Positions 2,558-56,980 of a DNA stretch of 64,000 bases are shown here, piece by piece (position 1 is the first letter of the stretch; each line of letters starts with the position of its first letter). The position numbers were made by a program, and so were the translations under genes. Source of the stretch: a virus (taxonomy: Duplodnaviria > Caudoviricetes); IMG/VR virus record IMGVR_UViG_3300033073_001248, positions 21,687 to 85,686 of that record; one strand, given 5' to 3'. The notes under the pieces were generated by a model, which was given only the letters and a program-made list of their open reading frames with translations, had not been told where the DNA came from and did no database searches.

Positions 2558-2561
2558 AATT

Positions 2562-2694: not shown

Positions 2695-2717
2695 AGTAGA
2701 CCAACAATATTAGTACT

Positions 2718-23372: not shown

Positions 23373-24422
23373 ATGGTGAAATTTAATTACATTGAAGACT
23401 ATGTTGAGTTTATTGGTGGCTATCGTGACATCAATAATCGACAGTTAGGTCTTTTTGACACAGTTCCTGCACCCGTAAGTCTGGCAAGATATGACATTAA
23501 AATTGTGGACAGTCTTGCCAGTCAAACTGCTGAAAGAAATATCAGCTACACTGACAAACAAGCAGAACTGGCTAAAAAGATTGTGCTTAAATATCGTCGA
23601 CAACTCAGTCAATTGCCCACGCCTGTTGAAGTTCCTGAAAACATCAGCAGGTACAGAATGGCAATTAGGCAAGTTGATAGAAGCCGCAAAGCTTACATTG
23701 AAAACAACAAATTAATTCTAAAATTTCCCTATGACAGCGAACTGATCACAGCCGTTAAAAATCAAAGCAAACAAGGTGATGGCTCAGCAGTATTTGATGC
23801 AGAAGAAAAAATTTGGCAGTTTGGTATTACTGAAAGTGTTGTAAACTGGATCTGTGCTATAAGTGAAAATCACAATATTGAAGTTGATAAGTCTGTTACT
23901 GATTTATATATTAAAATCCTCGAGTGCGAACAAAAACCTTTTGCTATTGAACTTAGAGACACTGGTACGGGCTATGAAATTGTTAATGCTGCAGACAGTT
24001 TAAAAGAGTATATTGTTTCTTGCTTGGGGGGCTTTGGCTACGACAATATTGTGGCACTAATTGACAATGCAGAAGTATTAGGTTATACTGTGCCCAAAGA
24101 ACTGTTGCTGGATTTTTATAGTAAATTTAGAAGTGAGCTTACAGTAAGGCAACGGCTTTGTGTTAGCCGTAGGCAAAGATATTTTAGCAAAAATAAATTA
24201 GGTCTTGAAGAAATTGTGGAATATGCTAGGCGTACCAACAGACTACCGGTATATGTCTACGCTACAGGTTTACCAAAAACCAGCACCGAAGAAGTTAAAT
24301 ACTTAAGACAAGAAGGAGTTGATACTAAAATCAAATGCCTTGTCAGCGAAAGCAGATTGTTAGTGGGCACACGCAAACAAGCTTGGATCAAACAAGCTGA
24401 AAAAATCTTTTACATTGAATGA
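23373..24422 (+). CDS. Hypothetical protein with HARP-like segment, upstream of UvsW-like helicase
   Basis: LKFPYDSELITAVK...FDAEEKIWQF resembles the HARP motif; coupled to the helicase gene. Confidence 0.55.
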   Translation: MVKFNYIEDYVEFIGGYRDINNRQLGLFDTVPAPVSLARYDIKIVDSLASQTAERNISYTDKQAELAKKIVLKYRRQLSQLPTPVEVPENISRYRMAIRQVDRSRKAYIENNKLILKFPYDSELITAVKNQSKQGDGSAVFDAEEKIWQFGITESVVNWICAISENHNIEVDKSVTDLYIKILECEQKPFAIELRDTGTGYEIVNAADSLKEYIVSCLGGFGYDNIVALIDNAEVLGYTVPKELLLDFYSKFRSELTVRQRLCVSRRQRYFSKNKLGLEEIVEYARRTNRLPVYVYATGLPKTSTEEVKYLRQEGVDTKIKCLVSESRLLVGTRKQAWIKQAEKIFYIE

Positions 24423-25879
24423 CTACCTGTATAATTGAAATCAAAGATGAAGTAAACTGTAAACTTCACAATCTTGAATTAACTGACCGCAAGCGATTAG
24501 TTGAAAAGTTCAAGTACGAAATACCTGGCGCAAGATACTTACCCGCAGTTAGACTTGGACGATGGGATGGTAAAGTGCCCTATTTTAATCTCGGCGGCAC
24601 AACTTACATAAACTTACTGCCTGACATTATACCCTTTGTTGAAGAACGGGGCTATGATATTGACATACAGGACAGTCGTGAATACAGTACAACATTTGAA
24701 TTCGAACCTGTAACAGAAACTACTTTTGCTGACATCAAGTGGCCCAAGGGACATCCTGCTGAAGGCGAGCCTATTCTATTGCGTGACTATCAAGTAGAAA
24801 TCGTTAATAAGTTTTTAGAGAATCCGCAGTGCATTCAGGAAGTGGCCACAGGCGCAGGCAAAACTATTATGACAGCAGCATTATCTGCAAGTGTGCAGAA
24901 ATATGGTCGTAGTGTGGTAATTGTACCCAGCAAGAGTTTGGTCACACAGACAGAAGCAGACTATATCAACATGGGCTTAGATGTAGGTGTGCTGTTCGGT
25001 GATCGCAAAGAATACACACGCACACATACTATCTGTACTTGGCAAAGTCTTAACACACTATTAAAGAATACTAAAAATTACGAAGCAGATGTTACTATTC
25101 ATGAATTTGTAGAAAATGTAGTCTGCATCATGGTAGACGAAGCTCACAGTGCCAAAGCAGACGCACTAAAAAGCTTGTTGACTTCTGTATTTGCCACCAC
25201 ACCCATCCGTTGGGGACTAACGGGTACTATTCCCAAAGAAGACTATGCGTTTCAAGCACTAAACTGTTGTATCGGCCCAGTCATGGGCAGACTAAGTGCC
25301 AGCGAACTTCAAGAAGCAGGCCATCTCAGCAATTGTCATGTAAATATAGTTCAATTGGTAGACTATGTAGAGTACAAAGACTATCAACAAGAGCTTAGAT
25401 ACTTACTGGAAACTGAATCAAGAATTGACTATCTCAGTCAATTAATTAATAAAATATCTGAATCGGGCAATACATTGGTCTTAGTGGATCGTGTGGGTCC
25501 AGGCAAAGAATTAGCCAGTAAAATCAATAATGCTGTGTTTGTGTCGGGCGCGACCAAAGCAAAGGATCGAAAGGAAGAATACGATGAAGTGGCTGTTTCA
25601 GATGGGAAGGTTATTGTGGCGACTTATGGTGTGGCCGCTGTGGGTATTAATATTCCTAGGATCTTTAATTTGGTTCTTGTGGAGCCCGGAAAAAGCTTTG
25701 TCAGGGTTATACAGTCTATTGGGCGAGGTATTAGGAAAGCGCAAGACAAGGACCATGTTGAAATTTGGGACATCACCTCAACCTGCAAGTTCGCAAAACG
25801 ACACCTTACCAAGCGTAAAGCATTCTACAAAGAAGCCAACTACCCATTCAGTTTGGAAAAATTAGACTGGCAGGCTTGA
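24419..25879 (+). CDS. uvsW: UvsW-like superfamily 2 DNA helicase
   Basis: LRDYQ, ATGAGKT, VDEAH, GLTGT, ATYGVAAVGINIP, QSIGRGIR. Confidence 0.88.
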   Translation: MTTCIIEIKDEVNCKLHNLELTDRKRLVEKFKYEIPGARYLPAVRLGRWDGKVPYFNLGGTTYINLLPDIIPFVEERGYDIDIQDSREYSTTFEFEPVTETTFADIKWPKGHPAEGEPILLRDYQVEIVNKFLENPQCIQEVATGAGKTIMTAALSASVQKYGRSVVIVPSKSLVTQTEADYINMGLDVGVLFGDRKEYTRTHTICTWQSLNTLLKNTKNYEADVTIHEFVENVVCIMVDEAHSAKADALKSLLTSVFATTPIRWGLTGTIPKEDYAFQALNCCIGPVMGRLSASELQEAGHLSNCHVNIVQLVDYVEYKDYQQELRYLLETESRIDYLSQLINKISESGNTLVLVDRVGPGKELASKINNAVFVSGATKAKDRKEEYDEVAVSDGKVIVATYGVAAVGINIPRIFNLVLVEPGKSFVRVIQSIGRGIRKAQDKDHVEIWDITSTCKFAKRHLTKRKAFYKEANYPFSLEKLDWQA

Positions 25880-26440: not shown

Positions 26441-26617
26441 ATGAAACTCGAACACGAATGGATTAGAGACCTGCACAAGTTAAGCATGATGTACAATGAG
26501 CAACGAGCACACAGAGATTTCCAAGCTGACGAAGTTTACAAGTTTGTGCAATGGGTCTATGAACAATATGGATACTTTTACAGTAAACCTGAGCTAACCA
26601 GTAAACATCACCAATGA
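26441..26617 (+). CDS. Small hypothetical protein (58 aa, not in ORF track)
   Basis: AAGGA RBS; MKLEHEWIRDLHKL...SKHHQ*; ATGA overlap with next gene. Confidence 0.65.
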   Translation: MKLEHEWIRDLHKLSMMYNEQRAHRDFQADEVYKFVQWVYEQYGYFYSKPELTSKHHQ

Positions 26618-27342
26618 CTAAAACTCTGGTAGTTTGTGGCTGTAGCTCAAGTTCTGCCAGTACTAGTCAACCTGGTTCAAGTTACACTGAATTATTGGCT
26701 GATAAATTACGCTGGGACCTTGTGCAATTAGCAAGACCTGGCATAAGCAATGGCGGTATAAGATTACAAATAGATGAATGCATAAAATTAAAACCAGATT
26801 TTGCTATCATTGCACCGACTTTTCATGATCGAATTGAAATACCAATAAACAAATTTAATAGTGCAGTTGGTTTAAAAAATATAAATTATACCAATGTAGG
26901 GTACAATTTATTAAGCGAATCTCTGTCAAGTTTAGCTGTAAACAAATTAAACCCCGAGAGATGTCAACTATTATCCTCGGCCAAAATCACCGCTGTAAAA
27001 TACTTTATTGATCAACTTTATGATAGTGATTGGAAACAACAGCTAGACACATGGATAATAAGAGATGGTATAACAGCACTATACCTTGCAGGAATTAATT
27101 TTATTGTTGTTCCTGACAATTTATGGTCAGTAGATTCTGTAAGACAAATAATACCTGATTTAATACCTGACCAGTTTTTGATTACTGATTCTAAAATGAC
27201 ACCGTCGCATGCAAGATTTTTACATCCTGTATTAGATCATGATCCTGGTTATCACAGTGACCCCGCAGGACAACAGTATCTCTCTGAAATATATTACGAC
27301 ATTATAATTAATTGGGAAAATTATGGGAAATCTAAAACCTAA
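26614..27342 (+). CDS. SGNH/GDSL-hydrolase-like protein
   Basis: VVCGCSS (block I), LARPGISNGGI (block II), DPGYH near the C-terminus (block V). Confidence 0.55.
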   Translation: MTKTLVVCGCSSSSASTSQPGSSYTELLADKLRWDLVQLARPGISNGGIRLQIDECIKLKPDFAIIAPTFHDRIEIPINKFNSAVGLKNINYTNVGYNLLSESLSSLAVNKLNPERCQLLSSAKITAVKYFIDQLYDSDWKQQLDTWIIRDGITALYLAGINFIVVPDNLWSVDSVRQIIPDLIPDQFLITDSKMTPSHARFLHPVLDHDPGYHSDPAGQQYLSEIYYDIIINWENYGKSKT

Positions 27343-27589: not shown

Positions 27590-28053
27590 TGGACAAGTTA
27601 TCAATCAACAATGAAATGGCACAGTTGGACGCCAAAAATTATGACTTTTATGATGAGTTGAACGAAGAAGAACGAAAGAAGTTCAGCACTTATCTTATGT
27701 TGCGCTATGCAGCTAGTGTGCAAGGATCACCTGATCTTCAAGAATGGTATCTCAGAGCCACCAATGACCGCGTTAATCAAAACTTTTTTGATTTAAATAG
27801 ACATCCAAAACTACAATGGTTACTGTGTACAACTGTTAGTCCTGGTATGGGTGTACAGCGACATTATTGGCAAGCCGCCAAAAAGAAAGACAGTGCAAAC
27901 AGTAAAGCAGTAAAATTTATTCTTAAATTGTATCCTCATTTAAAACAAGATGAAGCAGAACTGTTGGCCGAAATCAACACAGAAAAAGATCTCAAGCAGT
28001 TTGCACGACAAATGGGCATGACTGATCAGGAAATTAAAAAGGAACTGGGGTGA
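27589..28053 (+). CDS. Clamp-loader small subunit (T4 gp62-like), putative
   Basis: TAATG coupling at 27589. Helical protein whose YLMLR..., N.NFFDL.RHPKLQW, W..KK and KAV..I..LYP pattern recalls gp62; replication context. Confidence 0.5.
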   Translation: MDKLSINNEMAQLDAKNYDFYDELNEEERKKFSTYLMLRYAASVQGSPDLQEWYLRATNDRVNQNFFDLNRHPKLQWLLCTTVSPGMGVQRHYWQAAKKKDSANSKAVKFILKLYPHLKQDEAELLAEINTEKDLKQFARQMGMTDQEIKKELG

Positions 28054-28733
28054 CAGTTACTTGTCAGTACTGTAAAAAATCCTTTACTAGAGAAAGCACA
28101 TTGGCAGCTCATATGTGCGAGCCTAAGCGCAGGCATCAAAATCAAACAGATCCTGATGTACAGATGGGTTTCAAAGCTTACTTGCGTTTTTATGAAATCA
28201 CACAGGGCAGTGCTAAATTAAAAACCTACGAAGACTTTGCCGGCAGCAGTTATTATTCAGCCTTTGTAAAGTTTGGTCGTCACTGTCGTGGCATTCGTTG
28301 TGTTAACTTTGCCAGCTACACAGACTGGTTGTTGAAAAACAATAAAAAACTAGATCAATGGTCTAAGGATGCATTTTATGTAGAATGGCTGCAACAGTAT
28401 ATGCGTAAAGAAAGTGTGGATGACGCTGTAGAACGAGCATTCAAAGAAATGCAGGACGCCACTGAAATAGACATAAACTTGCACAATGATTTTAAAAACT
28501 ACTTTAGATACGGCTCAAGAAACAGAATCTGTCACCACATTGCCAACGGCAGAATTAGTCCTTGGATCATTTATAACTGTGATACCGGAATAGAATTTCT
28601 CAGTGATTTAAATGAAGAACAATTGGCCATTATCATGCCTTGGATTGATCCTGACTTTTGGCAACAGAAATTTAGAGATTATGTAGCAGATGTTGAATAC
28701 ATCAAAAACATTTTAAAAGAAGCAGGCCTGTGA
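28050..28733 (+). CDS. Protein with N-terminal classical-type zinc finger
   Basis: CQYCKKSFTRESTLAAHMC = C-x2-C-x3-F-x5-L-x2-H-x-C. Confidence 0.7.
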   Translation: MTVTCQYCKKSFTRESTLAAHMCEPKRRHQNQTDPDVQMGFKAYLRFYEITQGSAKLKTYEDFAGSSYYSAFVKFGRHCRGIRCVNFASYTDWLLKNNKKLDQWSKDAFYVEWLQQYMRKESVDDAVERAFKEMQDATEIDINLHNDFKNYFRYGSRNRICHHIANGRISPWIIYNCDTGIEFLSDLNEEQLAIIMPWIDPDFWQQKFRDYVADVEYIKNILKEAGL

Positions 28734-28956: not shown

Positions 28957-29682
28957 ATGATTTATATCAACGGCGATAGTTATATGAAAATGTCCGATGG
29001 AAAAAATACCGGTGAATTTTTAGCTGCCAAGTTACAGACCACCGTTATAAACAATAGTATATTAGGGTCATCAAACGAAAGAATATTTAGAACAAGTTTG
29101 CGAGATTTAATCAATTTAAAAAAAACAACCAATGAAAAAATTACAGCTATAGTTGGTTTAAGTTACATATATAGAAAAAGTATCTGGGATCCGTTGGGAC
29201 AAGACGACAGATGGAAACAAAGCAACGACGGCGAATTTGCATGTTATCAAATATTTCAAGGAGAAAATTGGTTAGAAAAATTATTTAAAAATCAATCTTT
29301 TAATAATATGCCAGAACATTTAAAAAAATACAGTAAAGAAATAGCATTATTTTATAATCCTGAAGCAGAAGTAACAAATTTACTGCAATCAGTTGAACTT
29401 TTTTCTACTTGGTGTGAAAATAATAATATCGATTACATTATTTTTTCGGGCCCCCGACAAGAAGATATAATAGATTTTACTGCACCATTTGTTGAACCTT
29501 TTTATAATTCTGTTGTAATAAAAAAAAATGTTTTAAACTTGTTTGAATTTAGTTTTTGTGAATATTGTGCATCACAAGGATTTAAAGGTTTTGATTTTGA
29601 AATTTTTGGGAAATATGCACATCACGGTCAAGCTGCTCATGAAAAATTTGCAGATTTTCTAATAGAGCAGTATAATTTGTAA
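28957..29682 (+). CDS. SGNH/GDSL-hydrolase-like protein
   Basis: YINGDSY, NNSILGSSNERI, C-terminal AHHGQAAH; very AT-rich relative to neighbours. Confidence 0.55.
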   Translation: MIYINGDSYMKMSDGKNTGEFLAAKLQTTVINNSILGSSNERIFRTSLRDLINLKKTTNEKITAIVGLSYIYRKSIWDPLGQDDRWKQSNDGEFACYQIFQGENWLEKLFKNQSFNNMPEHLKKYSKEIALFYNPEAEVTNLLQSVELFSTWCENNNIDYIIFSGPRQEDIIDFTAPFVEPFYNSVVIKKNVLNLFEFSFCEYCASQGFKGFDFEIFGKYAHHGQAAHEKFADFLIEQYNL

Positions 29683-29683
29683 T

Positions 29684-30283
29684 ATGAAGTTTAAATCAGA
29701 CATTGACATTGATTTCGCAGATAGAGATCAAATTCTAAAATTACTCAAGCACACACCTGCTAGTATTATTCGCGACGATAAAGTCACTAAGCATAACACA
29801 GGTGTTTACTTTCAAGCGATACCACAAGATCCCTTTACTGGTCAGGCCAGTTTGGACTATGAAGCAGCAGAAGATCGTGGCTATCTTAAGTTAGACTTTT
29901 TAAATGTTAGTGTGTATGGTCGAGTACAAAGTGAGCAACATCTAGTAGAACTAATGACTACAAAACCCGATTGGGCCAAACTGTATGACCGTGAATTCTG
30001 TGAGCAGTTAATTCATGTCAACGCACACTATGACACATTAATTAGAATGCCTGAACCGGTGGACAGTATCCCTAGAATGGCTATGTTTTTGGCAGTAATT
30101 CGTCCTGCAAAACGGCACTTGATTGGACAGCCGTGGCGCGAAGTTGCTAAAACTATTTGGGACAAACCTCAAGATGGCAGTTATTTTTTTAAGAAGTCGC
30201 ATAGCATATCTTACGCAACACTAGTAGCTGTAAACATGAATTTAAATGACCCTTCGTACAAGGGTAATGCTGCGACGCTTTGA
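29684..30283 (+). CDS. Miniature DNA polymerase III alpha (family C) core-like protein
   Basis: SDIDIDF, KHNTGVY, GYLKLDFLNV, RMAMFLAVIRP, FFKKSHSISYA correspond in order to DnaE PDFDVDF, KHAGGVV, KFDFLGL, ALFRPG, FNKSHSAAYA; only 199 aa. Confidence 0.75.
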   Translation: MKFKSDIDIDFADRDQILKLLKHTPASIIRDDKVTKHNTGVYFQAIPQDPFTGQASLDYEAAEDRGYLKLDFLNVSVYGRVQSEQHLVELMTTKPDWAKLYDREFCEQLIHVNAHYDTLIRMPEPVDSIPRMAMFLAVIRPAKRHLIGQPWREVAKTIWDKPQDGSYFFKKSHSISYATLVAVNMNLNDPSYKGNAATL

Positions 30284-30613
30284 ACGCTTTTGAGCGTTTT
30301 CTTTAAGGCTCAGTGCAGGCCCATATTTTACCTCAACATCCTTACTGTTGAATGTCTTTAATGTTGGCCTAAATGGGTGCCATTCTGTTTTTAGAAATAT
30401 GTTAATGGGCACCATTCTATTGCTTTCCCACCACCAAGCTTCACCCAGTTCTAAGTAAAGCCGTTTCTGCTCGGGTGTTTTTAATACAGCAAAATCATAG
30501 ATGCTGGTTATTACATCATCTATGTTCTGTATGATTCCTATATATTCGTTCCCCCCATAAGTTAAAAAACTTAAAAAGGGATAGTCGTCTAATAATTTCT
30601 GATAGTCCTGCAC
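30242..30613 (-). CDS. Hypothetical protein (only minus-strand gene called)
   Basis: GTG start 5 nt after a minus-strand TATAAATA; protein-like composition (WWWESNR). Confidence 0.7.
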   Translation of the reverse strand: MQDYQKLLDDYPFLSFLTYGGNEYIGIIQNIDDVITSIYDFAVLKTPEQKRLYLELGEAWWWESNRMVPINIFLKTEWHPFRPTLKTFNSKDVEVKYGPALSLKENAQKRSKRRSITLVRRVI

Positions 30614-30673: not shown

Positions 30674-31174
30674 ATGCAGCAGATTAATACATACATCTAC
30701 GACAATACGATCCTGATTCAGATAGCTACGGATCCAGAAATTGAACAAAGGAACAGAGTTGTGTACACTAGAACTATAACAGTCTACAAAGGTGTAGACA
30801 ATATTATCAAAGTAAAAGTCCAAAATCAGGATCAAAAACCCTATAATCTCACTAATGTACAGCCTTTGGTTTTTAGTGTCATTGACGATTATGTTACCAG
30901 CAACGCTAATGTTATATTTCAAAGCAATGTAACAATCAGCAACGCCACAGCAGGCATCGGAACTGTAACTATCCCCGTTATAAACATTAATGCATTTGAG
31001 CGTGAACAGTACATTTACTCACTTTATTACACAACAGGCAACACACAACAACCTGCTTATGTAGATGACAACTGGGGAGCTCAAGGGCAAATGGTTGTTG
31101 TGGGTACTGCATATCCGGAATTTACAGGCAATATATTTGTTGGCGACCCCGTAGAGGATTTGGGCACACTATAA
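30674..31174 (+). CDS. Virion structural protein (baseplate/fibre-associated Ig-like), putative
   Basis: First gene of a late operon; beta-rich with VKVQNQDQKP, GIGTVTIP. Confidence 0.5.
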   Translation: MQQINTYIYDNTILIQIATDPEIEQRNRVVYTRTITVYKGVDNIIKVKVQNQDQKPYNLTNVQPLVFSVIDDYVTSNANVIFQSNVTISNATAGIGTVTIPVININAFEREQYIYSLYYTTGNTQQPAYVDDNWGAQGQMVVVGTAYPEFTGNIFVGDPVEDLGTL

Positions 31175-34100
31175 TGACAATTAGCACAAGACGATTAAGA
31201 TTACTACGCGGCAATGCAGCCGCAGTGGCTGCATTTACTGGGCTTCAGGGTGAATTGGTTTTTAATACTGATACATACACACTGCATCTGCAAGATGGCG
31301 CAACAGCAGGCGGCTATAGTCTTGCTACTACTGCAGATTTAGCCAATATTAGTGCCAACGGCAATTATGGAAACAGTAATGTTGCTAGTTACTTAGCAAG
31401 TAATTCGAATGTAACAATTTTAACAACTTCTAACATTACCTCTTACTCTGATATAATCGGTAATGTGTTTAGTGGTCAGTACTTAGTTTTAGGTAACGCT
31501 ATAAACCAAGGCCAAAGTCCTTTTTTAATAGCCAATGTTAATAATGCAATTAATTTATTGACAGGTAATCGCGGCAACGGCAATGTCAGTATTCAATTGC
31601 GGGCAAATAATAACCTAACTGGCATTTATTTGCGAAATGATAACGGTTCGATGGGATTTAATACGGTCCCCAGCGGACCAAATATTGGTTATACTTTTAC
31701 TTTTAACGGTAGTGCTTATGCCAACGAGTTTTACACTGAAGCCAATATGCCCACAGGATATCAGTTCAACACAACTGATGGGGACACTGGTCTTAGTCAT
31801 GTAAATCTTGGTGGTAATTTAAGTGCTATTAGAATCCGTCAGGCTGGTCGCGAAACAGTTAAATTCTACAGCAACGATACTACCGAAATGCGTGGTAATA
31901 TTGTTATCAGCGACGGTGTAAATTACGGCCAATATCCTAATGCTTACATGCAGGTCTATGGCTATGCCAACAGCTATCAGCAGGTTGTTAACCAAAATCT
32001 AAGCAATAGTGCTGCCTCCAGCTCCGACTTTGTTGCCACAGCAGACAATGGCAGCGACACTTCTTATTTCATAGACATGGGCATTAACAGCAGCCAATTT
32101 GCCAGCGACAGTTGGTTCCCAGAGTCTAGTACAATAAATGATGGTTACTTGTATGTTGTAGGTTACGATGCTGCAGGACCTAGTACAGGTAACATTGGTA
32201 ATTTATATATTGGCAGTACAAATGGTGTTGTAAAAACATTCATAGGCAATACCTCAGATGCTAATGTAGTAACCACAGTCAGCACTAACTTATTTGCTGT
32301 CAGTGGAAACATCACAGCCACTGGTACACTACGAACTAATGCTACAACCATATCATTAGGCTACCATGCAGGCAACAGTGGCCAAGGCGCACTGACTGTT
32401 GCTGTTGGTAACCAAGCAGGTGAAATTGATCAAGGTCTGCAAGCTACAGCAGTTGGTGCTGGCGCTGGTAACTATGCTCAAGGTATTGGTACTACGGCAG
32501 TGGGTACTAATGCAGGAGCTGTTAACCAAGGGCTTCGCGCGGTAGCTATCGGGGCCTTGGCAGGATCACAAAATCAAGGTCAGTATGCTGTGGCTATTGG
32601 TAACTTTGCCGGCGGCACTAATCAAGCAAATAACAGCATTATATTAAGCGCCACAGGCACCAATTGGACTGCCAGTACTTCGGGTTTCTTTGTAGCACCT
32701 GTTGCAACTAGTACCACTGGCAATGTTTTATATTATAATACAACCACAAACGAAATAACTTACGGCGCTGCCGGCAGCACAAATTCGTTATCAAACGGCA
32801 CCAGTAATGTGTCAATACTCACAGCCAATGGTAATGTCACAGTGACAGCAGCTGGCACAAAAACTTGGACATTAGGCACTGACGGAACATTAACATTACC
32901 AAGCGGCGGACAGATAGGTGAAATTCAGTATGCTGGTGGTATTGATTTGTTTGCGTCAAACGCAATGGCCTACACACAAATCAATTATAACAACACAAAT
33001 TTTATCTATGCAGACTCTGGCGTTTCTGCATTGCAAACCCCTAATGCTTATGTAACTGCTGATACTCTCACAAAAAGAGCTTTGATTCAAGTAATAGATC
33101 CTGATACTTCAGCGGACAGTACTTGGAATTTTGCAGCCAACGGAGAATTAGCATTACCTGCCGATAGAGGAAAAATTGGTCTTAATTCTTATGTAAATGG
33201 CATGGACCTTTATAATAACAGTGGCGGTTCGGGCTATGTAAAAATGAATTTTGGTGACCAGTCTTATATGTGGGTCGATCCTGCAGGTGCCCACATTCAA
33301 ACTTCTGGGGGTAATTGGGATTTTAATGCCAACGGTGTATTGGTGGCCACTGGTAATATTGTAGCTAGTTTTGCCACAAGTCCAGCACCTGTAATTTCTG
33401 GTTATGCTTTTGACGGAGTTAGCGTAAACGCTAATATCGGAACATTCAATACAATTTATGGAACTATAGGCACTGCCTCACAAACAAATATTACAACTGT
33501 TGGCACTTTAACTGGTTTGGCAGTATCCGGCACTACTAACACAACCACCTTACAGGTCGGTGGCAATGCTACTATTGGCAACTTAATAGTAACTGGTAAC
33601 TCAACAATTATTGGTAATATTACCCAGATTAGCGGTAACAGTGGTCAATTCTTTGGTAATGCAGCCACAGGCTTTAACGCACTATACACAGGTATTGCCG
33701 CAGGCTATACACCGTTACAACAGACAATCATACAGAGTAGTGGTAATTACAACGACTATGTGCAGATTAATTTGCAAAATATCAACAGCGGCAATGCAGC
33801 CACTGGTGACTATATTGTAACTGCTGACAATGGATCCGACGCTACATATTTCATTGACATGGGCATTGCCAGCAGTAATTTCGATGGTTTGAGTGCTAAT
33901 ATTGTTGGTAATTCAGTTCGTGCAAATGACGGTTATTTGTATACCATGGGCAACGGCTCAGGCAATCAGGGCGGTAACTTAATCTTTGGCACAGGCACAG
34001 TAGGCAAGGTAGTTAAGATTATTGCAGGTGGTGGTAATACATCAAATGTTGTTGCTACTGTTTCTGCAGGTGCATTTACAGTTAATGGCAATATAACAGG

Positions 34101-36795
34101 TTCTTACATATTGGGTAACGGTAGCCAGTTGACTGGAGTTGCAGCCGCTACAGCAACAACAGCACAATATGTAACTGGACTGACCAGCGCCAATGTAATA
34201 ACGGCATTGGGCTATACACCTTCGAATTACGGCGATGCAAACGTTGCAGCGTTTTCTGGTAATTTGAATCCAGGTAACATCATATTAGCCAACGCAAGTG
34301 GCAGAATACAATTTAAGGCTTCGGGCACAACAAACGGTTCTTACATATACGACACACTTGGTTCTTTGTACCTGTCACCGAATACATCCTACTCGGCTAC
34401 TGCAGGCGTTATTATAGCCGGTTCTGGATTTATTTTAGGTCCCAACAGTGCAAGAAACCTAACTCTAAACTATAACAATGTCAACGGCGCAGTTGGTCTC
34501 CAAGCCAACGTGGTAATTGGTACAACACAAGCCGGCGGCAACTTGACTGTAGCTAACAGTATTACAGCCAGCGGTAATGTAACTGGCAACTATTTTATTG
34601 GTAATGGCGCACTATTAACAGGTATTACCGCCAGTGCTAATTATGGAAATACCAATGTTGCAGCGTTCTTAGGTGCATACGGCAGTAACACTATTGTAAC
34701 TACTGGTAATATTACTGGCGGTTACTTCATCGGCAATGGCGCATTATTAACGGGCATAGCAGCAAGTTCTAACTATGGTAACACCAATGTAGCTGCATAT
34801 TTGCCAACTTATACTGGAAATGTAAATGCAGCTTACTATTTTGGTAATGGCAGTCAATTGACAGGAATTACTGCTACCACAGCCACAACTGCACAGTATG
34901 TAACAGGATTGACCAGTGCTAATGTAACAACGGCTTTAGGATATACACCTACAAATTACAGTGACAGTAATGTAGGTTCCTATTTGTCTTCGGGCACCAC
35001 CGGTGCAATAAGTGCATTGTCAGCAACATTCCGTAACGGTGAACCCAATCCTAATTACAACACTTCACAAATAACATTTGGATATGCAGGCACTTCACAG
35101 TACCCTCATTTCATACATACTTTACACAATGCTGGTTCAGGATCCTACAACGCTATTAATTTTTACACCAGCGATGGTACACAGAGTGGTGTATTCCCAA
35201 CAAATGGTATATTAGGTTTAACTATAAGCAATGGTAAAATTGGCGTAGGTAATAACACTAATCCTTCCTATACCTTAGATGTAGCAGGTAATGCTTATGT
35301 AAGCGGCAATATATCAGCCTTATACTTTGTTGGTAATGGTAGTTTACTAACCGGCATTGTAGCAACATCTAGCTATAATGATTCTAATGTTGCTGCTTTC
35401 TTAGCCAATATTGGCAGTAACACAATAACTACAACAGGCAATATTACTGGTAATTACTTTATCGGTAATGGAGCACTGTTAACTGGCATATCAGCCAGCG
35501 CCAACTACGGAAATACTAATGTTGCAGCGTTCTTAGGTGCATACGGTAGTAACACTATTGTAACTACTGGTAATATTACAGCTGGTAATTTAATTGGAAA
35601 TGCATCAGGTACAACAGCTTCTTATACAGGCAATGTAACTGGTAATTTCTTCATTGGTAACGGTTCTACTTTAACAGGTGTAACAAATTACAGCAATGCT
35701 AATGCTGTATCAATGTTAAGCACTAATACCAATGTCATTATTGGTAACACTAACGTTTATCCGTTGCAGGGTAATATTACACAGGTATTCGTTGGTAATG
35801 CCACAGCACTAACCAGCGGCGGCAATACTGGCCCAACTTTGACCAATATACTGAATAATGCCTACTATGATGCCGCCGGCGCACTACGCTATCGCAATAC
35901 ACAGACTGGTGCATTATCAATTGCATTGGGTGGTTCAGGAGGAATTTCAGTAGGTGGAACAACTGGAAGTGTAACAGCCAATGCTGCTAGCGGCATGGGC
36001 GCATGGTTAACTCTTAACGGTACTACTCTTCAAACATATAACAGTATTGGAATTACCAGTTCTGGCACAATAACAACCACTAGTGGTTCATTGGTAACTG
36101 GTGCGGCTGTCAGTACTTTGTTCAATACAGTGGCCAGCACTGTTAATATGGGTGGTGCGGCAACCACTATTGCCATGGGCGCAAGTACTGCAACAGTTAC
36201 AATTGGTTCAGGTACTGGTAATCTTACAGTTGGTAATATTAGTGCTGGTGGCAACATTACAGTCGGCAATGTTATTGGTCTAACCACAAACACAACTATT
36301 ACTGCAGGCACATATACAACTACATTTGATAATGTGGGCAATGTCACAGTAAGTGGCAATTTGACAATCAACGGTGTATATGCTGGCTATGCGCCAGCTC
36401 GTGCAGCAGTTCGTTTATATGGTAATTCATCAACTAATTTGACCGCAGGAACCACAATAAGTAATCAAGTAATTGATTATAATCAAGGCAGTTATTACAA
36501 TAATTCTACAGGACTCTTTACAGTGCCAATTGCAGGACTATATCATTGTTATGCTACTATTCGTGTTGGCAATAACAATGCGCTGAACCAAGCAGCACTA
36601 TTAAAGAATAATAATACAACTGGAGCAAACGTTATTGCATTCTGGGAAACAGATACTAATGCAGGAGTTGCAAGTCATTTCTCAATAACAGGCTATGCCA
36701 AGTGCGTGGCAGGCGATACTATAAGCTTGAAAGTAATAACAGGCAACGTGCAATTTGACAGCAATGACAGCTGGGGCGTAACATATATAGGTTAA
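31174..36795 (+). CDS. Long tail fibre / adhesin (1873 aa)
   Basis: N-terminal LLRG..AAVAAFTGLQGELVFNTDT.TLHLQDG anchor; YadA-like AVAVGNQAG repeats; many GNITGNYFIGNGALLTGI repeats; C-terminal C1q/TNF-like domain (YNNSTGLFTVPIAGLY). Confidence 0.85.
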   Translation: MTISTRRLRLLRGNAAAVAAFTGLQGELVFNTDTYTLHLQDGATAGGYSLATTADLANISANGNYGNSNVASYLASNSNVTILTTSNITSYSDIIGNVFSGQYLVLGNAINQGQSPFLIANVNNAINLLTGNRGNGNVSIQLRANNNLTGIYLRNDNGSMGFNTVPSGPNIGYTFTFNGSAYANEFYTEANMPTGYQFNTTDGDTGLSHVNLGGNLSAIRIRQAGRETVKFYSNDTTEMRGNIVISDGVNYGQYPNAYMQVYGYANSYQQVVNQNLSNSAASSSDFVATADNGSDTSYFIDMGINSSQFASDSWFPESSTINDGYLYVVGYDAAGPSTGNIGNLYIGSTNGVVKTFIGNTSDANVVTTVSTNLFAVSGNITATGTLRTNATTISLGYHAGNSGQGALTVAVGNQAGEIDQGLQATAVGAGAGNYAQGIGTTAVGTNAGAVNQGLRAVAIGALAGSQNQGQYAVAIGNFAGGTNQANNSIILSATGTNWTASTSGFFVAPVATSTTGNVLYYNTTTNEITYGAAGSTNSLSNGTSNVSILTANGNVTVTAAGTKTWTLGTDGTLTLPSGGQIGEIQYAGGIDLFASNAMAYTQINYNNTNFIYADSGVSALQTPNAYVTADTLTKRALIQVIDPDTSADSTWNFAANGELALPADRGKIGLNSYVNGMDLYNNSGGSGYVKMNFGDQSYMWVDPAGAHIQTSGGNWDFNANGVLVATGNIVASFATSPAPVISGYAFDGVSVNANIGTFNTIYGTIGTASQTNITTVGTLTGLAVSGTTNTTTLQVGGNATIGNLIVTGNSTIIGNITQISGNSGQFFGNAATGFNALYTGIAAGYTPLQQTIIQSSGNYNDYVQINLQNINSGNAATGDYIVTADNGSDATYFIDMGIASSNFDGLSANIVGNSVRANDGYLYTMGNGSGNQGGNLIFGTGTVGKVVKIIAGGGNTSNVVATVSAGAFTVNGNITGSYILGNGSQLTGVAAATATTAQYVTGLTSANVITALGYTPSNYGDANVAAFSGNLNPGNIILANASGRIQFKASGTTNGSYIYDTLGSLYLSPNTSYSATAGVIIAGSGFILGPNSARNLTLNYNNVNGAVGLQANVVIGTTQAGGNLTVANSITASGNVTGNYFIGNGALLTGITASANYGNTNVAAFLGAYGSNTIVTTGNITGGYFIGNGALLTGIAASSNYGNTNVAAYLPTYTGNVNAAYYFGNGSQLTGITATTATTAQYVTGLTSANVTTALGYTPTNYSDSNVGSYLSSGTTGAISALSATFRNGEPNPNYNTSQITFGYAGTSQYPHFIHTLHNAGSGSYNAINFYTSDGTQSGVFPTNGILGLTISNGKIGVGNNTNPSYTLDVAGNAYVSGNISALYFVGNGSLLTGIVATSSYNDSNVAAFLANIGSNTITTTGNITGNYFIGNGALLTGISASANYGNTNVAAFLGAYGSNTIVTTGNITAGNLIGNASGTTASYTGNVTGNFFIGNGSTLTGVTNYSNANAVSMLSTNTNVIIGNTNVYPLQGNITQVFVGNATALTSGGNTGPTLTNILNNAYYDAAGALRYRNTQTGALSIALGGSGGISVGGTTGSVTANAASGMGAWLTLNGTTLQTYNSIGITSSGTITTTSGSLVTGAAVSTLFNTVASTVNMGGAATTIAMGASTATVTIGSGTGNLTVGNISAGGNITVGNVIGLTTNTTITAGTYTTTFDNVGNVTVSGNLTINGVYAGYAPARAAVRLYGNSSTNLTAGTTISNQVIDYNQGSYYNNSTGLFTVPIAGLYHCYATIRVGNNNALNQAALLKNNNTTGANVIAFWETDTNAGVASHFSITGYAKCVAGDTISLKVITGNVQFDSNDSWGVTYIG
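34654..35579 (+). repeat. 62-bp direct repeat (1 mismatch) inside tail fibre
   Basis: AATGTTGCAGCGTTCTTAGGTGCATACGG(C/T)AGTAACACTATTGTAACTACTGGTAATATTAC at 34654-34715 and 35518-35579. Confidence 0.9.
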
Positions 36796-42240: not shown

Positions 42241-43287
42241 ATGTTTAATGCGGTTCAAGATTATACCGTAAGTTTGTTGCCTTCTAAAAGAAGACGCAGC
42301 CAAAGCGGTTGGCAAAGTTTCAATGCTGTTTGCTGTCAACACAACGGTGACAGCCCCGACACAAGAGGTCGCGGTGGCATCATGACCAATCCTAATGGCA
42401 GTGTGGCTTATCATTGTTTTAACTGCCAGTTCAAAACCAGTTATACTCCAGGCAGACCTTTAAGTTTCAAATTTAGAAAACTGCTGCGTTGGTTGGGCGG
42501 AGATCTAAATGAAATACAGCGACTGGTTATCGAAGCACTGAGAATCAAAGATCTAATCAAACCTGAAGAAATAGAAGAAGAAAAAGAATCGATTACTTTT
42601 GAACGCAGATCCCTGCCCCTTGAAGCAAAAAGCTTTTGGGCGCTAGCAGAATTTTATAAGTTAGCAGACAACAATAACTTGCCCGCAAACTTTGTACATG
42701 CGGTCAACTATGTTGTAGACAGAAAGATTGACTGTAACAGATATGACTTTTACTGGACTCCCGAAGTAGAGCACAAACTAGCGCATCGTGTTATAGTGCC
42801 ATTCAAATACAAGAATGAAATAGTTGGTTATACAGCCCGTGCTATAAACGATGGTATCAAACCCAAGTACCACAGCAATCATCCCGCTGACTTTGTGTTT
42901 AACTTAGACAATCAACGGCCTGACAATAAATTTGTCATAGTCTGTGAGGGAACTTTTGATGCCATGAGCGTAGATGGTGTCAGTGTACAAAGCAATGAAA
43001 TAAGTGAACAACAAGCAGAACTGATAGAACAGTTGGGCAAGCCTGTGATATTTGTGCCGGACTTTGACAAACACACAGACAAACAAGGTCGTGAAGTATG
43101 GCCAGGCTATGCTGCAGTAGAACAGGCTGTTGAATATGGATGGAGCGTAAGTTTTCCTGTATGGCGTGAAACCTGCAAGGACATTAATTCTGCTGTACAA
43201 AAATATGGCAAACTATTTGTGTTAAAAGCTATCTTAGACGCACAAGAGTCTAATCCATTAAAAATCAAATTGATGAAAAATAAGTAA
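42241..43287 (+). CDS. DNA primase (Zn-binding + TOPRIM)
   Basis: CCQHNGD...HCFNC Zn site, GYTARAI, VCEGTFDAM, FVPDFD, KDIN; adjacent to helicase. Confidence 0.85.
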   Translation: MFNAVQDYTVSLLPSKRRRSQSGWQSFNAVCCQHNGDSPDTRGRGGIMTNPNGSVAYHCFNCQFKTSYTPGRPLSFKFRKLLRWLGGDLNEIQRLVIEALRIKDLIKPEEIEEEKESITFERRSLPLEAKSFWALAEFYKLADNNNLPANFVHAVNYVVDRKIDCNRYDFYWTPEVEHKLAHRVIVPFKYKNEIVGYTARAINDGIKPKYHSNHPADFVFNLDNQRPDNKFVIVCEGTFDAMSVDGVSVQSNEISEQQAELIEQLGKPVIFVPDFDKHTDKQGREVWPGYAAVEQAVEYGWSVSFPVWRETCKDINSAVQKYGKLFVLKAILDAQESNPLKIKLMKNK

Positions 43288-43290
43288 AAT

Positions 43291-44733
43291 ATGTCAAAAG
43301 AATATACTACAGATCTACAAAAATTATTTTTAGAGATGATGATTCAAAACGCTGAAAGCTATTTGCGTGTTCAAAACATCTACAATCCCGAAAACTTTGA
43401 TCGTAGTCTAAAAAGCACAGCCAAGTTTATTAGAGAACATGTGGACACGCACAGAGCCATGCCCACAAGGGAACAGGTGTTAGCATTTACCGGCACAGAA
43501 CTAAAACCTGTTCCTGACTTGACAGACAATCACTATGATTGGTTCATGGCGGAGTTTGAAGGCTTTACTAAGAAACAAGAACTGGAACGAGCTATTCTCA
43601 AAGCCGCAGACATGATTGAAAAAGGTGAGTTTGACCCAGTAGAAAAACTAATCAAGGATGCGGTACAGATCAGTCTGACCAAAGACATGGGCACTGAGTA
43701 TTTTGAAGATCCCCGTGCTAGATTGATGAAGATCAAAGACAACAACGGACAAGTCAGCACAGGCTGGCCCACTCTTGACAAGCGACTGTTTGGTGGTATG
43801 AACAGAGGTGAACTCAACATCTTTGCTGGTGGTTCGGGTTCGGGTAAAAGTTTGTTCATGCAGAATATTGCCATTAACTGGGCTACACAGGGTCTAAACG
43901 GTGTGTTTTTAACACTGGAACTCAGTGAAGAACTCTGTGCCATGCGTATGGATTCAATGGTGGCCAATGTCAGCACTAAAGAAGTGTTTAAAGACTTGGA
44001 AACAGTTGAACTTAAGGTAAAGATGGTGGGCAAGAAGTCTGGTAACCTGCGTATCAAATACATGCCAGCACAGAGTAATGTAAATCAAATTCGCGCATAC
44101 TTAAAAGAACTGGAAGTACAGACTGGTCGCAAAACAGACTTTATCATGGTAGACTACTTGGACTTGGTCATGCCAGTTAGTGCTAAGGTTTCGCCCAACG
44201 ACCTGTTTGTCAAAGACAAATATGTATCAGAAGAACTGCGTAACTTGGCTCGTGAGTTTGGCATACTGATGGTCACTGCTAGTCAGTTGAATAGAAGTGC
44301 AGTTGAAGAAATTGAATTTGACCACAGTCATATCTCGGGCGGTATCAGTAAGATTAACACAGCAGATAATGTGTTTGGTATCTTTACCAGTAGAGCAATG
44401 CGTGAGCGTGGCCGCTATCAAATACAGTTAATGAAAACTCGTAGCAGTTCGGGTGTTGGTATGAAAGTGGACTTAGAGTTCGATCTTGAAACACTGCGTA
44501 TTACTGACCCTGGTGAGGAAGCACAGGGCACACCTGGAACGGTCAAGCCACAGGTTGGCAGCATCATGAGTCAAATTAAAGCCAAAAGCACTGTTGGTGA
44601 CGGTGAAGAACAGCCTGGGGGATTTCAACGAGCACAACCCAAAGAAGGCTGGAGCTTGGATAAACCTGTACATGGAGAAGCTAATAGCACTAAGCTGAAA
44701 GCTATGCTAGCCGGATTAAAGAAAGTCGAATAA
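43291..44733 (+). CDS. Replicative helicase (T4 gp41/DnaB-like)
   Basis: STGWPTLD, FAGGSGSGKS, LELSE, IMVDYLDL, TASQLNR, MKTR. Confidence 0.9.
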   Translation: MSKEYTTDLQKLFLEMMIQNAESYLRVQNIYNPENFDRSLKSTAKFIREHVDTHRAMPTREQVLAFTGTELKPVPDLTDNHYDWFMAEFEGFTKKQELERAILKAADMIEKGEFDPVEKLIKDAVQISLTKDMGTEYFEDPRARLMKIKDNNGQVSTGWPTLDKRLFGGMNRGELNIFAGGSGSGKSLFMQNIAINWATQGLNGVFLTLELSEELCAMRMDSMVANVSTKEVFKDLETVELKVKMVGKKSGNLRIKYMPAQSNVNQIRAYLKELEVQTGRKTDFIMVDYLDLVMPVSAKVSPNDLFVKDKYVSEELRNLAREFGILMVTASQLNRSAVEEIEFDHSHISGGISKINTADNVFGIFTSRAMRERGRYQIQLMKTRSSSGVGMKVDLEFDLETLRITDPGEEAQGTPGTVKPQVGSIMSQIKAKSTVGDGEEQPGGFQRAQPKEGWSLDKPVHGEANSTKLKAMLAGLKKVE

Positions 44734-53237: not shown

Positions 53238-55583
53238 TTGAGCACAATGATTCAAGTTATTAAACGAGACGGCACAAAAGAACAATTAAATCTAGAAAAG
53301 TGGCAAGCACAGATTCAAAAAGTATGCAAAGGTGTAGCCGATGTCAGTCAAAGCATGATTGAAATCAAAACACATCCACAGTTTTTTGACGGTATCACAA
53401 CTAAAGAAATTGACGCACTAACTCTAAGAGCTATTGTAGACTTGATCGATGTAGAGTCTAATCCTGATGTTGGCCATGTCAACTATCAATATGTTGCAGG
53501 CAAACAGCGTCTTAGCATGTTGCGTAAGGATGTATACGGCAGCTATGAAGTGCCACATCTTTATGACATTGTAAAACGAAATGTGGCAGTTGGTCTGTAT
53601 ACTCCTGAACTGTTGGAATGGTACAGTGAAGCAGACTGGGACCGAATGAATGAAATGCTGGATCATGAAAAAGATGAACAGTACAGTTATGCAGCCATTG
53701 AACAGCTGATAGAAAAATATCTAGTACGCAATCGTGCCACAAAAGAAATTTATGAAACTCCGCAGGTTCGATATATGATAGCAGCTGCAACTGTATTTCA
53801 CAAAGAAGAACCCAACACAGCGAGAATGCGCTACATAAAGGAATATTACAATGCGGCTAGCGACGGTCTTTTCACTCTTGCCACTCCTGTTCTTGCTGGT
53901 CTGGGCACTCCAACAAAACAATTTAGTAGCTGTGTTCTCATCCGCAGTGACGACGATCTTGACAGTATTTTTGCATCCGGGGAGATGATGGCCAAGTATG
54001 CCAGCAAGCGAGCTGGTATTGGTCTAGAAATTGGTCGTTTGCGTCCTCTGGGTTCGCCCATTCGCGGTGGCGAGATCATGCACACTGGTATGATTCCTTT
54101 CCTTAAGAAATGGTTTGGCGACCTTCGTAGTTGCAGCCAGGGTGGTATCCGCAATGCGTCAGCTACTGTATTCTATCCTATTTGGCATCATCAGTTTGAT
54201 GACCTTATTGTGCTTAAGAACAATCAAGGTACAGAAGAAACTCGTGTTCGTCACATGGACTACGGAGTAGTACTGTCAGCATTCTTTTGGCGCCGCTTTA
54301 AAAATAAAGAGAATATTACATTCTTTGATCCCAACGAAGTACCTGACTTATACGAAGCTTTTTACAGTAATAGTAAACTGTTTGAAGAACTATATGTCAA
54401 GTATGAACGCACACCTGGACTTCGTAAAAAGACCATGAATGCCGAAGAAGTATTCAAAAGCGGAATACTAAAAGAGCGCACCGACACAGGCAGAATTTAT
54501 CTTGTGTTCATTGACAATGTCATGAACCAAGGTCCTTTCAATCCTGAATATCATACCATTTATCAAAGTAATTTGTGCTGTGAGATACTTTTACCTACTC
54601 GTCCTTTTAAGCGTCTTGATGATCCTGACGGCCGCATTGCCCTCTGCACTCTTGGATCGATTAACTGGGGTGCGTTCCGTAATCCTGAAGATATGCGTAG
54701 GGCTTGTCGCATTCTACAGCGTAGCCTTTGCAATATATTGGACTATCAAGATTTTCTTTCCATACAAAGTGAGTTAAGCAACAAAGAGATTCAACCTTTG
54801 GGTATTGGCGTAACTAACTTGGCCAATTGGCATGCCAAGCGTGGCTTTAAGTATGGCGACAAAGATGCACTGCAAGATGTAAAGACATGGATGGAACATC
54901 AAGCATTTTACTTAACAGAAGCCACAGTTGATCTTGCTCGTGAACGCGGCAAATGCGGACACAGTGACTTAACAAGATATGGACAGGGCGTTTTTCCTTG
55001 GGAATTGCGAGCCGAAGGTGTTAATGAACTGGCAGACTTTAAACCAGAACTAGACTGGGAAACACTGCGAAACAACATGAGACAGTGGGGCGTTCGAAAC
55101 GCTACACTAATGGCTATCGCTCCTGTGGAAAGCAGCAGTGTAGTAATTGACAGCACAAATGGCATCGAAATGCCTATGAGTTTGATCACAGTAAAAGAAA
55201 GCAAAGCAGGTTCGTTTACACAAGTAGCACCTGACTATGCCAAACTAAAACACAAATACGAATTAATGTGGGAACAGAAAGACTGTGTGGGTTATTTGAA
55301 AACCGCTGCGGTATTGGCTGCGTATGTTGACCAAAGTATCAGCACCAACACTTTCTATAATCCTGCACATTTCCCAGGACGCAAAGTACCTACTACCCTG
55401 ATTGCTAAAAACTTAATGCAAGCACACAAGTGGGGATTGAAAACATTTTATTACAGTCTTATCAACAAGCAAGGTGCAAAGGCAGACATGCAGGAAGCAC
55501 AACCTGAAGCACAGATCAGCAGCAGCATCAGCAGTGCCATTGACTTTGAAGATCAAGAAGACTGTGAAAGTTGCAAGTTGTAA
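53238..55583 (+). CDS. nrdA: Class Ia ribonucleotide reductase alpha subunit with ATP cone
   Basis: VIKRDG ATP cone, FSSCVL, QSNLCCEI, CTLG, APVESSS, TFYY, C-terminal CESC; alternative start ATG 53247. Confidence 0.95.
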   Translation: MSTMIQVIKRDGTKEQLNLEKWQAQIQKVCKGVADVSQSMIEIKTHPQFFDGITTKEIDALTLRAIVDLIDVESNPDVGHVNYQYVAGKQRLSMLRKDVYGSYEVPHLYDIVKRNVAVGLYTPELLEWYSEADWDRMNEMLDHEKDEQYSYAAIEQLIEKYLVRNRATKEIYETPQVRYMIAAATVFHKEEPNTARMRYIKEYYNAASDGLFTLATPVLAGLGTPTKQFSSCVLIRSDDDLDSIFASGEMMAKYASKRAGIGLEIGRLRPLGSPIRGGEIMHTGMIPFLKKWFGDLRSCSQGGIRNASATVFYPIWHHQFDDLIVLKNNQGTEETRVRHMDYGVVLSAFFWRRFKNKENITFFDPNEVPDLYEAFYSNSKLFEELYVKYERTPGLRKKTMNAEEVFKSGILKERTDTGRIYLVFIDNVMNQGPFNPEYHTIYQSNLCCEILLPTRPFKRLDDPDGRIALCTLGSINWGAFRNPEDMRRACRILQRSLCNILDYQDFLSIQSELSNKEIQPLGIGVTNLANWHAKRGFKYGDKDALQDVKTWMEHQAFYLTEATVDLARERGKCGHSDLTRYGQGVFPWELRAEGVNELADFKPELDWETLRNNMRQWGVRNATLMAIAPVESSSVVIDSTNGIEMPMSLITVKESKAGSFTQVAPDYAKLKHKYELMWEQKDCVGYLKTAAVLAAYVDQSISTNTFYNPAHFPGRKVPTTLIAKNLMQAHKWGLKTFYYSLINKQGAKADMQEAQPEAQISSSISSAIDFEDQEDCESCKL

Positions 55584-55586: not shown

Positions 55587-55775
55587 ATGGACGCTTACGA
55601 TGTTCAAGAACGGCTTAAACAAGCATGGAGTACCATTGCCATGCAACAGAGCCAAACAGGCAATTTAACTAAGAGCTGGCCCAGTATTCCTGTAGTTGTA
55701 AAAACAGAAGGGCTAGAAAAAATTGTTGTTGATGTCGTAGTTAAAGACAATCGAATTTATTTGGAGTTAAAATGA
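55587..55775 (+). CDS. Small hypothetical protein
   Basis: 62 aa, coupled to aceA. Confidence 0.6.
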
Positions 55776-56980
55776 AAAAACGAAACTATACTGTGGAAAC
55801 AGTGAAAAAACTGCAAGGCAGTGTTCAAATCGAGCATACCCTAGCTAAAAGAGGAGCCGCAAAGCTGAGAGAGCTGTTGGCCACGGAACCTTATATTAAC
55901 ACACTGGGTGCGTACAATGGTCAAATGGCAGTACAACATGCCAAAGCAGGACTAAAAGCAATTTATTTAAGTGGCTGGCAAGTTGCGGCTGCTAACAATA
56001 CTGCTAATCAAACTTATCCTGACCAATCACTGTATCCCGTCGATTCTGTGCCCCGTGTAGTCAAAGGCATCAACAATGCTTTCCGTCGTGCTGATCAAAT
56101 TGAGTACAGTGAAGGCAAGGTAGAAACAGATTACTTCCTGCCTATTGTAGCAGACGCAGAAGCTGGCTTTGGTGGTGCGCTAAATGCCTATGAACTAATG
56201 TCAGCAATGATTGAAGCTGGCGCCGCAGGCGTACACTTTGAAGATCAATTAGCCAGTGAAAAGAAATGTGGTCACTTAGGTGGTAAGGTCTTAGTGCCTA
56301 CAAGCCAAATGATTCGCACACTAAATGCTGCAAGATTAGCTGCGGATGTAGCAGGAGTAGATACAGTTATTATGGCTCGCACTGACGCAGAAGCTGCTAC
56401 ACTTATTACCAGTGACCATGACCCTTTAGACAAGGATTTTATCATAAATGAGCGTACTGAGGAAGGTTTTTACAAATTTAAAAATGGCATTGATGCTTGT
56501 ATTAGCAGAGGTCTTGCTTTTGCCCCTTACGCTGATCTCTTATGGTTCGAAACTTCGACGCCTAGCATTGCACAGGCTAGAAAGTTTGCCGATGCCATTC
56601 ATGCTGTATATCCTGATCAGATGCTTGCCTACAATTGCAGTCCTAGTTTTAATTGGCGTAAGTTTTTAAGTGCTGATGAATGTGAAACTTTCCAGCGCGA
56701 ACTAGGCGAACTGGGCTACAAGTTCCAATTCATTACGCTGGCAGGTTTCCATAGTGTTAACTTGGCTACATTTGAATTAGCTGAAGCATATAAAGAAAGA
56801 GGAATGGCTGGCTATAGCGAAATGCAACAGCGTGAGTTTGCTGCACAAGAGCGTGGCTTTACCACAGTTAAACATCAGCGTGAAGTTGGTGTCAGTTACT
56901 TTGATTTAATTAGCGAAGCAGTTGGTGCTACATCAACAGTTGCTAATAAAAGCAGTACTGAAGCAGATCAGTTTCATTGA
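55772..56980 (+). CDS. aceA: Isocitrate lyase
   Basis: [34 protein letters not shown], catalytic [38 protein letters not shown]. Confidence 0.97.

Follow-up and report, generated by a model that had tools for sequence, protein, structure and literature searches.

The window analyzed here is a 64,000-nt stretch (positions 21,687 to 85,686) of IMG/VR record IMGVR_UViG_3300033073_001248, an 85.7-kb fragment of an uncultured phage. CheckV estimates this fragment to be ~16% complete, and a contig of this length at this level of completeness points to a jumbo phage with a genome of several hundred kb. The neighbouring genes are consistent with a jumbo phage and include those for helicases, a probable primase, a ribonucleotide reductase and virion proteins as well as an 1873-aa fibre. 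At positions 29684-30283 on the + strand there is an intact ORF of 199 aa, with an ATG start and a TGA stop, that codes for one unit (hereafter the C-unit) of a split minimal DNA polymerase III (Pol III) alpha subunit. The features of the window that are relevant to this ORF, together with other genes in its neighbourhood, are as follows.

24419-25879, + strand: UvsW-like DNA helicase, 486 aa (phrog_16 at 5e-77)
26614-27342 and 28957-29682, + strand: two ~241-aa ORFs without a PHROG match, located in an otherwise syntenic replication block
28050-28733, + strand: C2H2 zinc-finger protein, 227 aa (phrog_11058 at 3.7e-54)
29684-30283, + strand: C-unit of the split minimal Pol III alpha, with D6, D8 and D71, K69, R140-P141 and the helix-loop-helix Y167/F169/K171-S172-H173
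30242-30613, - strand: convergent neighbour of unknown function, 123 aa (phrog_11637 at 1.7e-32)
31174-36795, + strand: giant repetitive protein, 1873 aa, Gly/Asn/Thr-rich, with an N-terminal Mtd_N (major tropism determinant) domain
42241-43287, + strand: probable DNA primase, 348 aa (weak DNAG_N match at 0.005; assigned mostly by synteny)
43291-44733, + strand: DnaB-like replicative helicase, 480 aa (phrog_19 at 7.4e-76)
53238-55583: class I ribonucleotide reductase

A preliminary description of this DNA had proposed that the 199-aa ORF is a free-standing gene with no frameshifted continuation on either side. This is indeed the case, as the upstream ORF at 28957-29682, which ends 1 nt 5' of the C-unit ATG, is unrelated and the downstream neighbour is a convergent ORF on the opposite strand whose 3' end shares 42 nt with that of the C-unit gene. 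A small opposite-strand gene also occupies the equivalent position in phages Phosso and PAC2, in the ENA contig NODE_11 (L111) and in a contig with a fused form of the gene (L092). The phrog_11637 product could be a functional partner or a regulator of the C-unit.

Synteny with PAC2 and Phosso extends to the UvsW helicase, the C2H2 protein, the small reverse ORF and the primase-DnaB pair. The UvsW helicase gene is at the equivalent relative place in both phages, as part of a syntenic replication/recombination block. The C2H2 protein, for which the zf-C2H2 match (6e-5, 23.6 bits) falls under the Pfam cut-off of 25.2 bits, is a conserved upstream neighbour in related jumbo phages and directly adjoins the C-unit in PAC2. 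The primase-DnaB pair is likewise located 3' of the C-unit in Phosso and PAC2, which is the basis of the primase assignment. Relative to these phages the local gene order of the window contains extra insertions, namely the 241-aa ORF upstream of the C-unit and the 1873-aa fibre gene downstream, the latter separating the C-unit block from the primase-helicase block. Additionally, the 1873-aa protein exhibits a C-terminal C1q-like match that is 0.2 bits under the Pfam cut-off, and probably functions as a giant tail fibre or receptor-binding protein. At the nucleotide level, a 20-kb part of the window had no megablast match among phage records.

Several other observations concern genes outside of this block or of no assigned family. 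The ORF at 28957-29682 has a weak, sub-threshold match to DUF6071, and the idea that it and the ORF at 26614-27342 are paralogues was rejected upon direct comparison. In NODE_11 a 262-aa ORF, close to these two in length, occurs after the C-unit rather than before it. A 402-aa ORF at 55772-56980 (+ strand) strongly matches isocitrate lyase (PF00463, E 6e-103; also PEP_mutase), and has no PHROG match. It is a candidate auxiliary metabolic gene, of a glyoxylate-shunt or methylisocitrate lyase type. At the other end of the window, positions 467-2551 (+ strand) encode a 694-aa radical SAM protein (PF04055, 2.4e-10) that is contained in a region (1-4000) with a G+C content of 0.32, markedly below the ~0.41 observed elsewhere. 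Since PA5oct-type relatives are reported to have modified G and QueE-like genes (PMC12191111), this region may belong to a DNA-modification module.

Family assignment and predicted fold of the C-unit

The 199-aa protein is a member of phrog_11778, annotated as "DNA polymerase", with residues 2-187 aligning to profile positions 4-190 of 197 at 2e-61. Residues 152-188 additionally give weak matches to long DnaE-type PHROG families, and the full-length DnaE-type profile phrog_405 weakly matches two collinear stretches of the protein (profile positions 559-631 and 773-810). Other single-sequence searches were uninformative, with Pfam reporting nothing for this ORF at E<=1 (the PF07733 threshold was not reached) and a phmmer search against the PDB returning only a chance match. 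When a profile of the family (alignment A1) was searched against all PDB sequences, the Pol III alpha chains of E. coli, Thermus and M. tuberculosis were recovered at E 6e-6 to 1e-4, and the only other matches were two chance ones at E 0.65.

Structure prediction similarly depended upon the family alignment, as AlphaFold run with the single sequence gave an uninformative model (pLDDT 35) while the A1 alignment gave a mean pLDDT of 95.5. Foldseek analysis of the latter model placed DnaE chains in the top twelve positions (probability 0.47-1.0, best E 1.5e-3). The predicted C-unit fold is the second half of the C-family palm joined to a trimmed finger core. The model covers E. coli DnaE residues 397-784 only, minus 407-509 and 642-738, in agreement with the preliminary description, in which PHP, the clamp-binding site, the OB fold and most of the thumb and fingers had been listed as missing.

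Homologues are present in 96 phage records, all of them jumbo phages of group 2.2. Among these, the window protein is 52% identical to that of Atu_ph07, 50% to that of Phosso, 46% to those of the PA5oct group and 40% to those of 121Q/PBECO4/GAP32.

Catalytic and substrate-binding residues

The preliminary description had recognized five DnaE motifs in the correct order, including three catalytic Asp residues. A family HMM run on dnaE translated from MG1655 establishes that all five are collinear with E. coli DnaE, and their conservation was counted in alignment A1, which comprises 84 full-length representatives with identities of 30-62% to the query. In SDIDIDF, D6 and D8 correspond to E. coli D401 and D403, and each is kept in 83/84 sequences; LKLDFL holds the counterparts of K553 (K69) and D555 (D71), both invariant (84/84). 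KHNTGVY is the counterpart of the E. coli KHAGGVV strand at 510-516 (H37 kept in 82/84, G40 in 83/84) and VIRPA contains R140-P141, equivalent to R639-P640 (Arg in 83/84, Pro in 84/84). Finally, YFFKKSHS supplies Y167, F169, K171, S172 and H173 at the positions of E. coli Y754, F756, K758, S759 and H760, with conservation in 59, 70, 68, 67 and 82 of the 84 sequences, respectively.

The roles of these residues in the E. coli enzyme have been described in a 2026 cryo-EM preprint (10.64898/2026.06.29.735100). In that study D401 and D403 are on the catalytic strand, K553 touches the primer terminal phosphate (with K553A inactive), and the templating nucleotide is contacted by R639, P640 and G641. 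Furthermore, Y754 provides the stacking contact for the incoming base, H760 excludes rNTPs as a steric gate, and the GS motif (R362-G363-S364) binds the beta- and gamma-phosphates (10.64898/2026.06.29.735100). Retention of the Tyr, the steric-gate His and the template-contacting Arg-Pro in the C-unit family thus argues for template reading and use of dNTPs.

Reduction in size has occurred between the motifs, as had been proposed from the sequence alone. The span from D6 to K171 is 165 residues versus 357 for D401 to K758 of E. coli, a roughly twofold difference that matches the original estimate, with the thumb (407-509) replaced by 24 aa and an index-finger segment (642-738) replaced by 10 aa. 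E. coli residues before 397 and after about 785 have no counterpart in the C-unit. Lost with the thumb are the beta-strands that grip the minor groove, and the missing index-finger segment is the one that carries R709, R710, K714 and K715 near the dNTP (R709, K714 and K715 within 4 A). In addition, the separate N-terminal protein of relatives (see below) has a conserved Glu at the position of E. coli R390, so the chemistry could differ from that of DnaE. Together, the deletion of the thumb and of R709/K714/K715 and the replacement of R390 by Glu indicate a remodelled nucleotide pocket for which templated DNA synthesis is not guaranteed.

In relatives the remainder of the palm is encoded by a separate gene

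The ORF starts just five residues before the DxD strand and does not contain the GS motif strand or the N-terminal palm. Since the strand that binds the nucleotide triphosphate is missing, the C-unit is not a complete catalytic core, and on this point the preliminary description, which had treated the 199-aa protein as a catalytic core on its own, needs to be revised. In relatives a separate protein of 170-175 aa (PF07733; hereafter the N-unit), encoded 40-240 kb away, carries the N-terminal palm and the GS strand (E. coli R362-G363-S364). For example, in the 338.5-kb IMG/VR genome G001 (97% complete) the C-unit is at 94 kb and a 171-aa ORF at 331 kb is the N-unit, which ends in ...GVGRGSSVAS...DLDITEFLK. 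GAP32 has its C-part at 213 kb and, at 247 kb, an N-part annotated as "DNA polymerase III alpha subunit". The closest long relative, the 263.9-kb contig NODE_11 (ENA ERZ4229443), has a C-unit 82% identical to that of the window and carries its N- and C-units on the same strand, 117 kb apart. The N-unit of relatives passes the PF07733 gathering score (36.7 bits), and its profile aligns to E. coli DnaE 349-392, which places the break between the two units between residues 392 and 400.

A natural fusion of the two units is also found:

L092 (ENA ERZ28653423 scaffold_211374), 1066-2193: fusion ORF P0141, on a 2.4-kb contig with the usual convergent downstream gene

This 375-aa protein has a 190-residue N-terminal extension with GVGRGSSSAS upstream of the DxD strand and a C-part that is 42% identical to the window protein. 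The order of the two pieces is that of DnaE, and PF07733 spans their junction (residues 97-207 against model positions 12-121). P0141 is the sole fused form among the best 150 of the 433 clusters, and a word-based search aimed at longer (fused) homologues came up empty, which is weak evidence. A tblastn search of phage genomes with P0141 gave 188 matching places in 96 records, the same records that contain C-unit homologues, with two separate places in 39/40 records among those listed. N- and C-units therefore co-occur in essentially every phage record with a C-unit. The N-unit family is also as abundant as that of the C-unit, with at least 8000 clusters of 170-175 aa and PF07733 present in all 120 listed.

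A search of the genome for a complementary DnaE piece and a family A/B replicase had been recommended at the outset, and its outcome was divided. Both a complementary piece and a family B polymerase (PolB) are present in G001, Phosso and PAC2, whereas neither was found in the window's own contig, which represents ~16% of the genome. Specifically, in this 85.7-kb contig there is no tblastn match to the N-terminal piece of P0141, no match to PF07733 and no match to PF00136 (PolB), and the one GRGS-type motif in its six-frame translation occurs in a stop-interrupted frame ~10.7 kb before the window. With only ~16% of the genome in hand, the missing N-unit and PolB are uninformative rather than contrary. 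As the N-unit gene is not on this fragment, pairing of the two units in this particular phage is inferred from relatives.

Conservation and selection

An exhaustive representative search recovered 433 clusters of C-unit homologues at 50% identity, and the family comprises at least 8000 clusters in a 90%-identity database. Full-length relatives are 183-219 aa and the shorter members look like contig-end fragments. The ratio dN/dS was calculated by the Nei-Gojobori method from 79 IMG/VR coding sequences; over the 81 pairs with 0.05<dS<1.5 the median is 0.088 and the highest value 0.17. The 199-aa gene is real, strongly conserved and under purifying selection, and it is not decaying, as indicated by a dN/dS of ~0.09, uniform length and near-invariant catalytic residues (the three Asp residues are kept in 83, 83 and 84 of 84). 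The initial judgement that the ORF does not reflect simple decay, for which variable truncation with a dN/dS near 1, or Asp residues that are not conserved, would have been contrary signs, is thus upheld.

Comparison with known polymerases

A split minimal Pol III alpha, present alongside PolB in group 2.2 jumbo phages, has been described computationally by Iyer, Anantharaman, Krishnan, Burroughs and Aravind (Iyer et al. 2021, Viruses 13:63; PMC7824862). The window ORF is the C-terminal unit of this enzyme and as such is of an already known kind. It is not new given that description, the "DNA polymerase" annotation of phrog_11778 and several GenBank records in which homologues are labelled "DnaE-like DNA polymerase III alpha", and the novelty implied by the preliminary description is accordingly withdrawn. 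The window protein corresponds to the described C-unit in family, size, content of Mg2+- and template-binding residues and neighbours, and its relatives likewise have PolB and a separate N-terminal unit for NTP binding. Nothing essential sets it apart; the partner gene is simply not on the window's fragment. A literature search recovered no experimental study of the split mini Pol III protein, and the PA5oct omics paper and a 2026 jumbo-phage review make no mention of the C-unit protein.

Bacterial DnaE and PolC (E. coli 2hnh/5fkw, Taq 3e0d, M. tuberculosis 5lew and G. kaustophilus PolC 3f2b) share with the C-unit the catalytic Asp triad on the Pol-beta-like palm. In contrast to these enzymes, the C-unit does not have the PHP domain, the GS-bearing N-terminal palm (which is on the other gene), the thumb (407-509), the index-finger segment (642-738), the ring and little fingers, the clamp-binding motif, or the HhH, OB and tau-binding domains. 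DnaE and PolC are also bacterial replicases, whereas in the phage PolB would be the replicase. The full-length DnaE-like enzymes of group 3.2 phages such as Bacillus phage G (phrog_405) show only weak collinear matches to the C-unit; they are host-like proteins of ~1190 aa that have a PHP domain and serve as replicase, while the C-unit is a 199-aa phage-specific half. Finally, unlike a complete Pol-beta-like nucleotidyltransferase domain, the C-unit has no GS strand before the DxD in the same protein.

Relatives with long assemblies provide a view of the polymerase complement as a whole. In G001, Phosso and PAC2, each of which has a family B polymerase, the full-length DnaE profile detects only two small ORFs, apart from a 27-residue match (E 0.01) in Phosso. 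PHP and C-terminal domains are not matched in these three genomes (phrog_405 positions 1-359 and 821-1190). The split Pol III is not the main replicase in these relatives, where it coexists with a family B polymerase.

Proposed role of the split enzyme and alternative explanations

The reading that we consider likely is that the ORF is the C-unit of the minimal Pol III alpha that jumbo phages of group 2.2 (RaK2/121Q/PA5oct/Atu_ph07-like) encode in two genes, and that this enzyme as a heterodimer carries out templated incorporation of dNTPs beside PolB. The C-unit would contribute the three metal-binding Asp residues, the primer-phosphate Lys K69 and the template-contacting R140-P141, with the Y167/F169/K171/S172 helix-loop-helix forming the putative nascent base-pair pocket and H173 presumably gating out rNTPs. 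The C-unit alone is predicted to be inactive and to pair non-covalently with the far-encoded ~171-aa N-unit, as the source of the N-terminal palm helices and of the GS strand for triphosphate binding. Upon association the two units would rebuild a Pol-beta-like palm in which the GS strand of the N-unit is beside the DxD strand of the C-unit. The ~370-aa heterodimer, with no thumb, clamp-binding motif, PHP domain, OB fold or proofreading partner, would be a template-dependent dNTP polymerase that is distributive (of low processivity) and clamp-independent. Its work beside the T4-type family B replicase would probably not be bulk replication but a specialised kind of synthesis such as repair or gap filling. 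Along similar lines, Iyer et al. (2021) suggested that the split enzyme may cooperate with PolB in one-strand synthesis or repair (PMC7824862). Of the two options offered in the preliminary description, one subunit of a split polymerase is therefore favoured, given the separate N-unit in relatives, the P0141 fusion and the account of Iyer et al. (2021).

The other option was a nucleotidyltransferase repurposed for ends such as signalling. In its present form this explanation holds that the pair is catalytic without being a conventional templated polymerase, and acts instead as an untemplated or terminal nucleotidyltransferase, as a specialised enzyme that places modified nucleotides into the modified DNA of the phage, or as a maker of a nucleotide signal or anti-defence compound. 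The loss of the thumb, of R709/K714/K715 and of R390 leaves a pocket unlike that of DnaE, these phages already have a PolB replicase, and PA5oct-type phages appear to carry modified G (PMC12191111), all of which are in keeping with such an enzyme. However, the near-invariant equivalent of the His760 steric gate and the template-contacting Arg-Pro (82/84 and 83-84/84), along with the base-stacking Tyr (59/84), point to use of dNTPs and reading of a template, and there is no direct evidence of an alternative substrate for the two-gene enzyme. We therefore regard this explanation as unlikely. A specialised form of it, in which the N+C mini Pol III uses its remodelled pocket for modified nucleotides or for short-patch or untemplated synthesis tied to DNA modification or anti-defence, strikes us as improbable.

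That the 199-aa protein acts by itself as a miniature polymerase or nucleotidyltransferase, with no need of a partner, is very improbable. Its own start and stop, three Asp residues and compact, confidently predicted fold would be expected of such an enzyme, but it is devoid of the GS strand and N-terminal palm, the parts with which every Pol-beta-like nucleotidyltransferase contacts the beta- and gamma-phosphates, and the regular company of the N-unit as well as the existence of the P0141 fusion speak for a two-part enzyme. A decaying remnant or non-catalytic pseudo-enzyme derived from a captured host dnaE, as might be supposed from the presence of just about one sixth of DnaE and the failure of Pfam to recognise the ORF, is scarcely credible and its decay is refuted by the selection and conservation data, which include uniform length across the 433 clusters and the abundance of the family.

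Implications

The two-gene minimal Pol III alpha would, if active, be the smallest known C-family polymerase, and its ~370 residues would then represent the minimal functional core of the fold used by the bacterial replicase. An active pair would also provide a model for the ancestral form of the C-family fold, as was proposed for minimal Pol III alpha by Iyer et al. (2021; PMC7824862). The window adds one more environmental member to a family that was described computationally in 2021, and it raises again the question posed at that time of why an abundant environmental clade of jumbo phages keeps a clamp-less polymerase beside a T4-type PolB.
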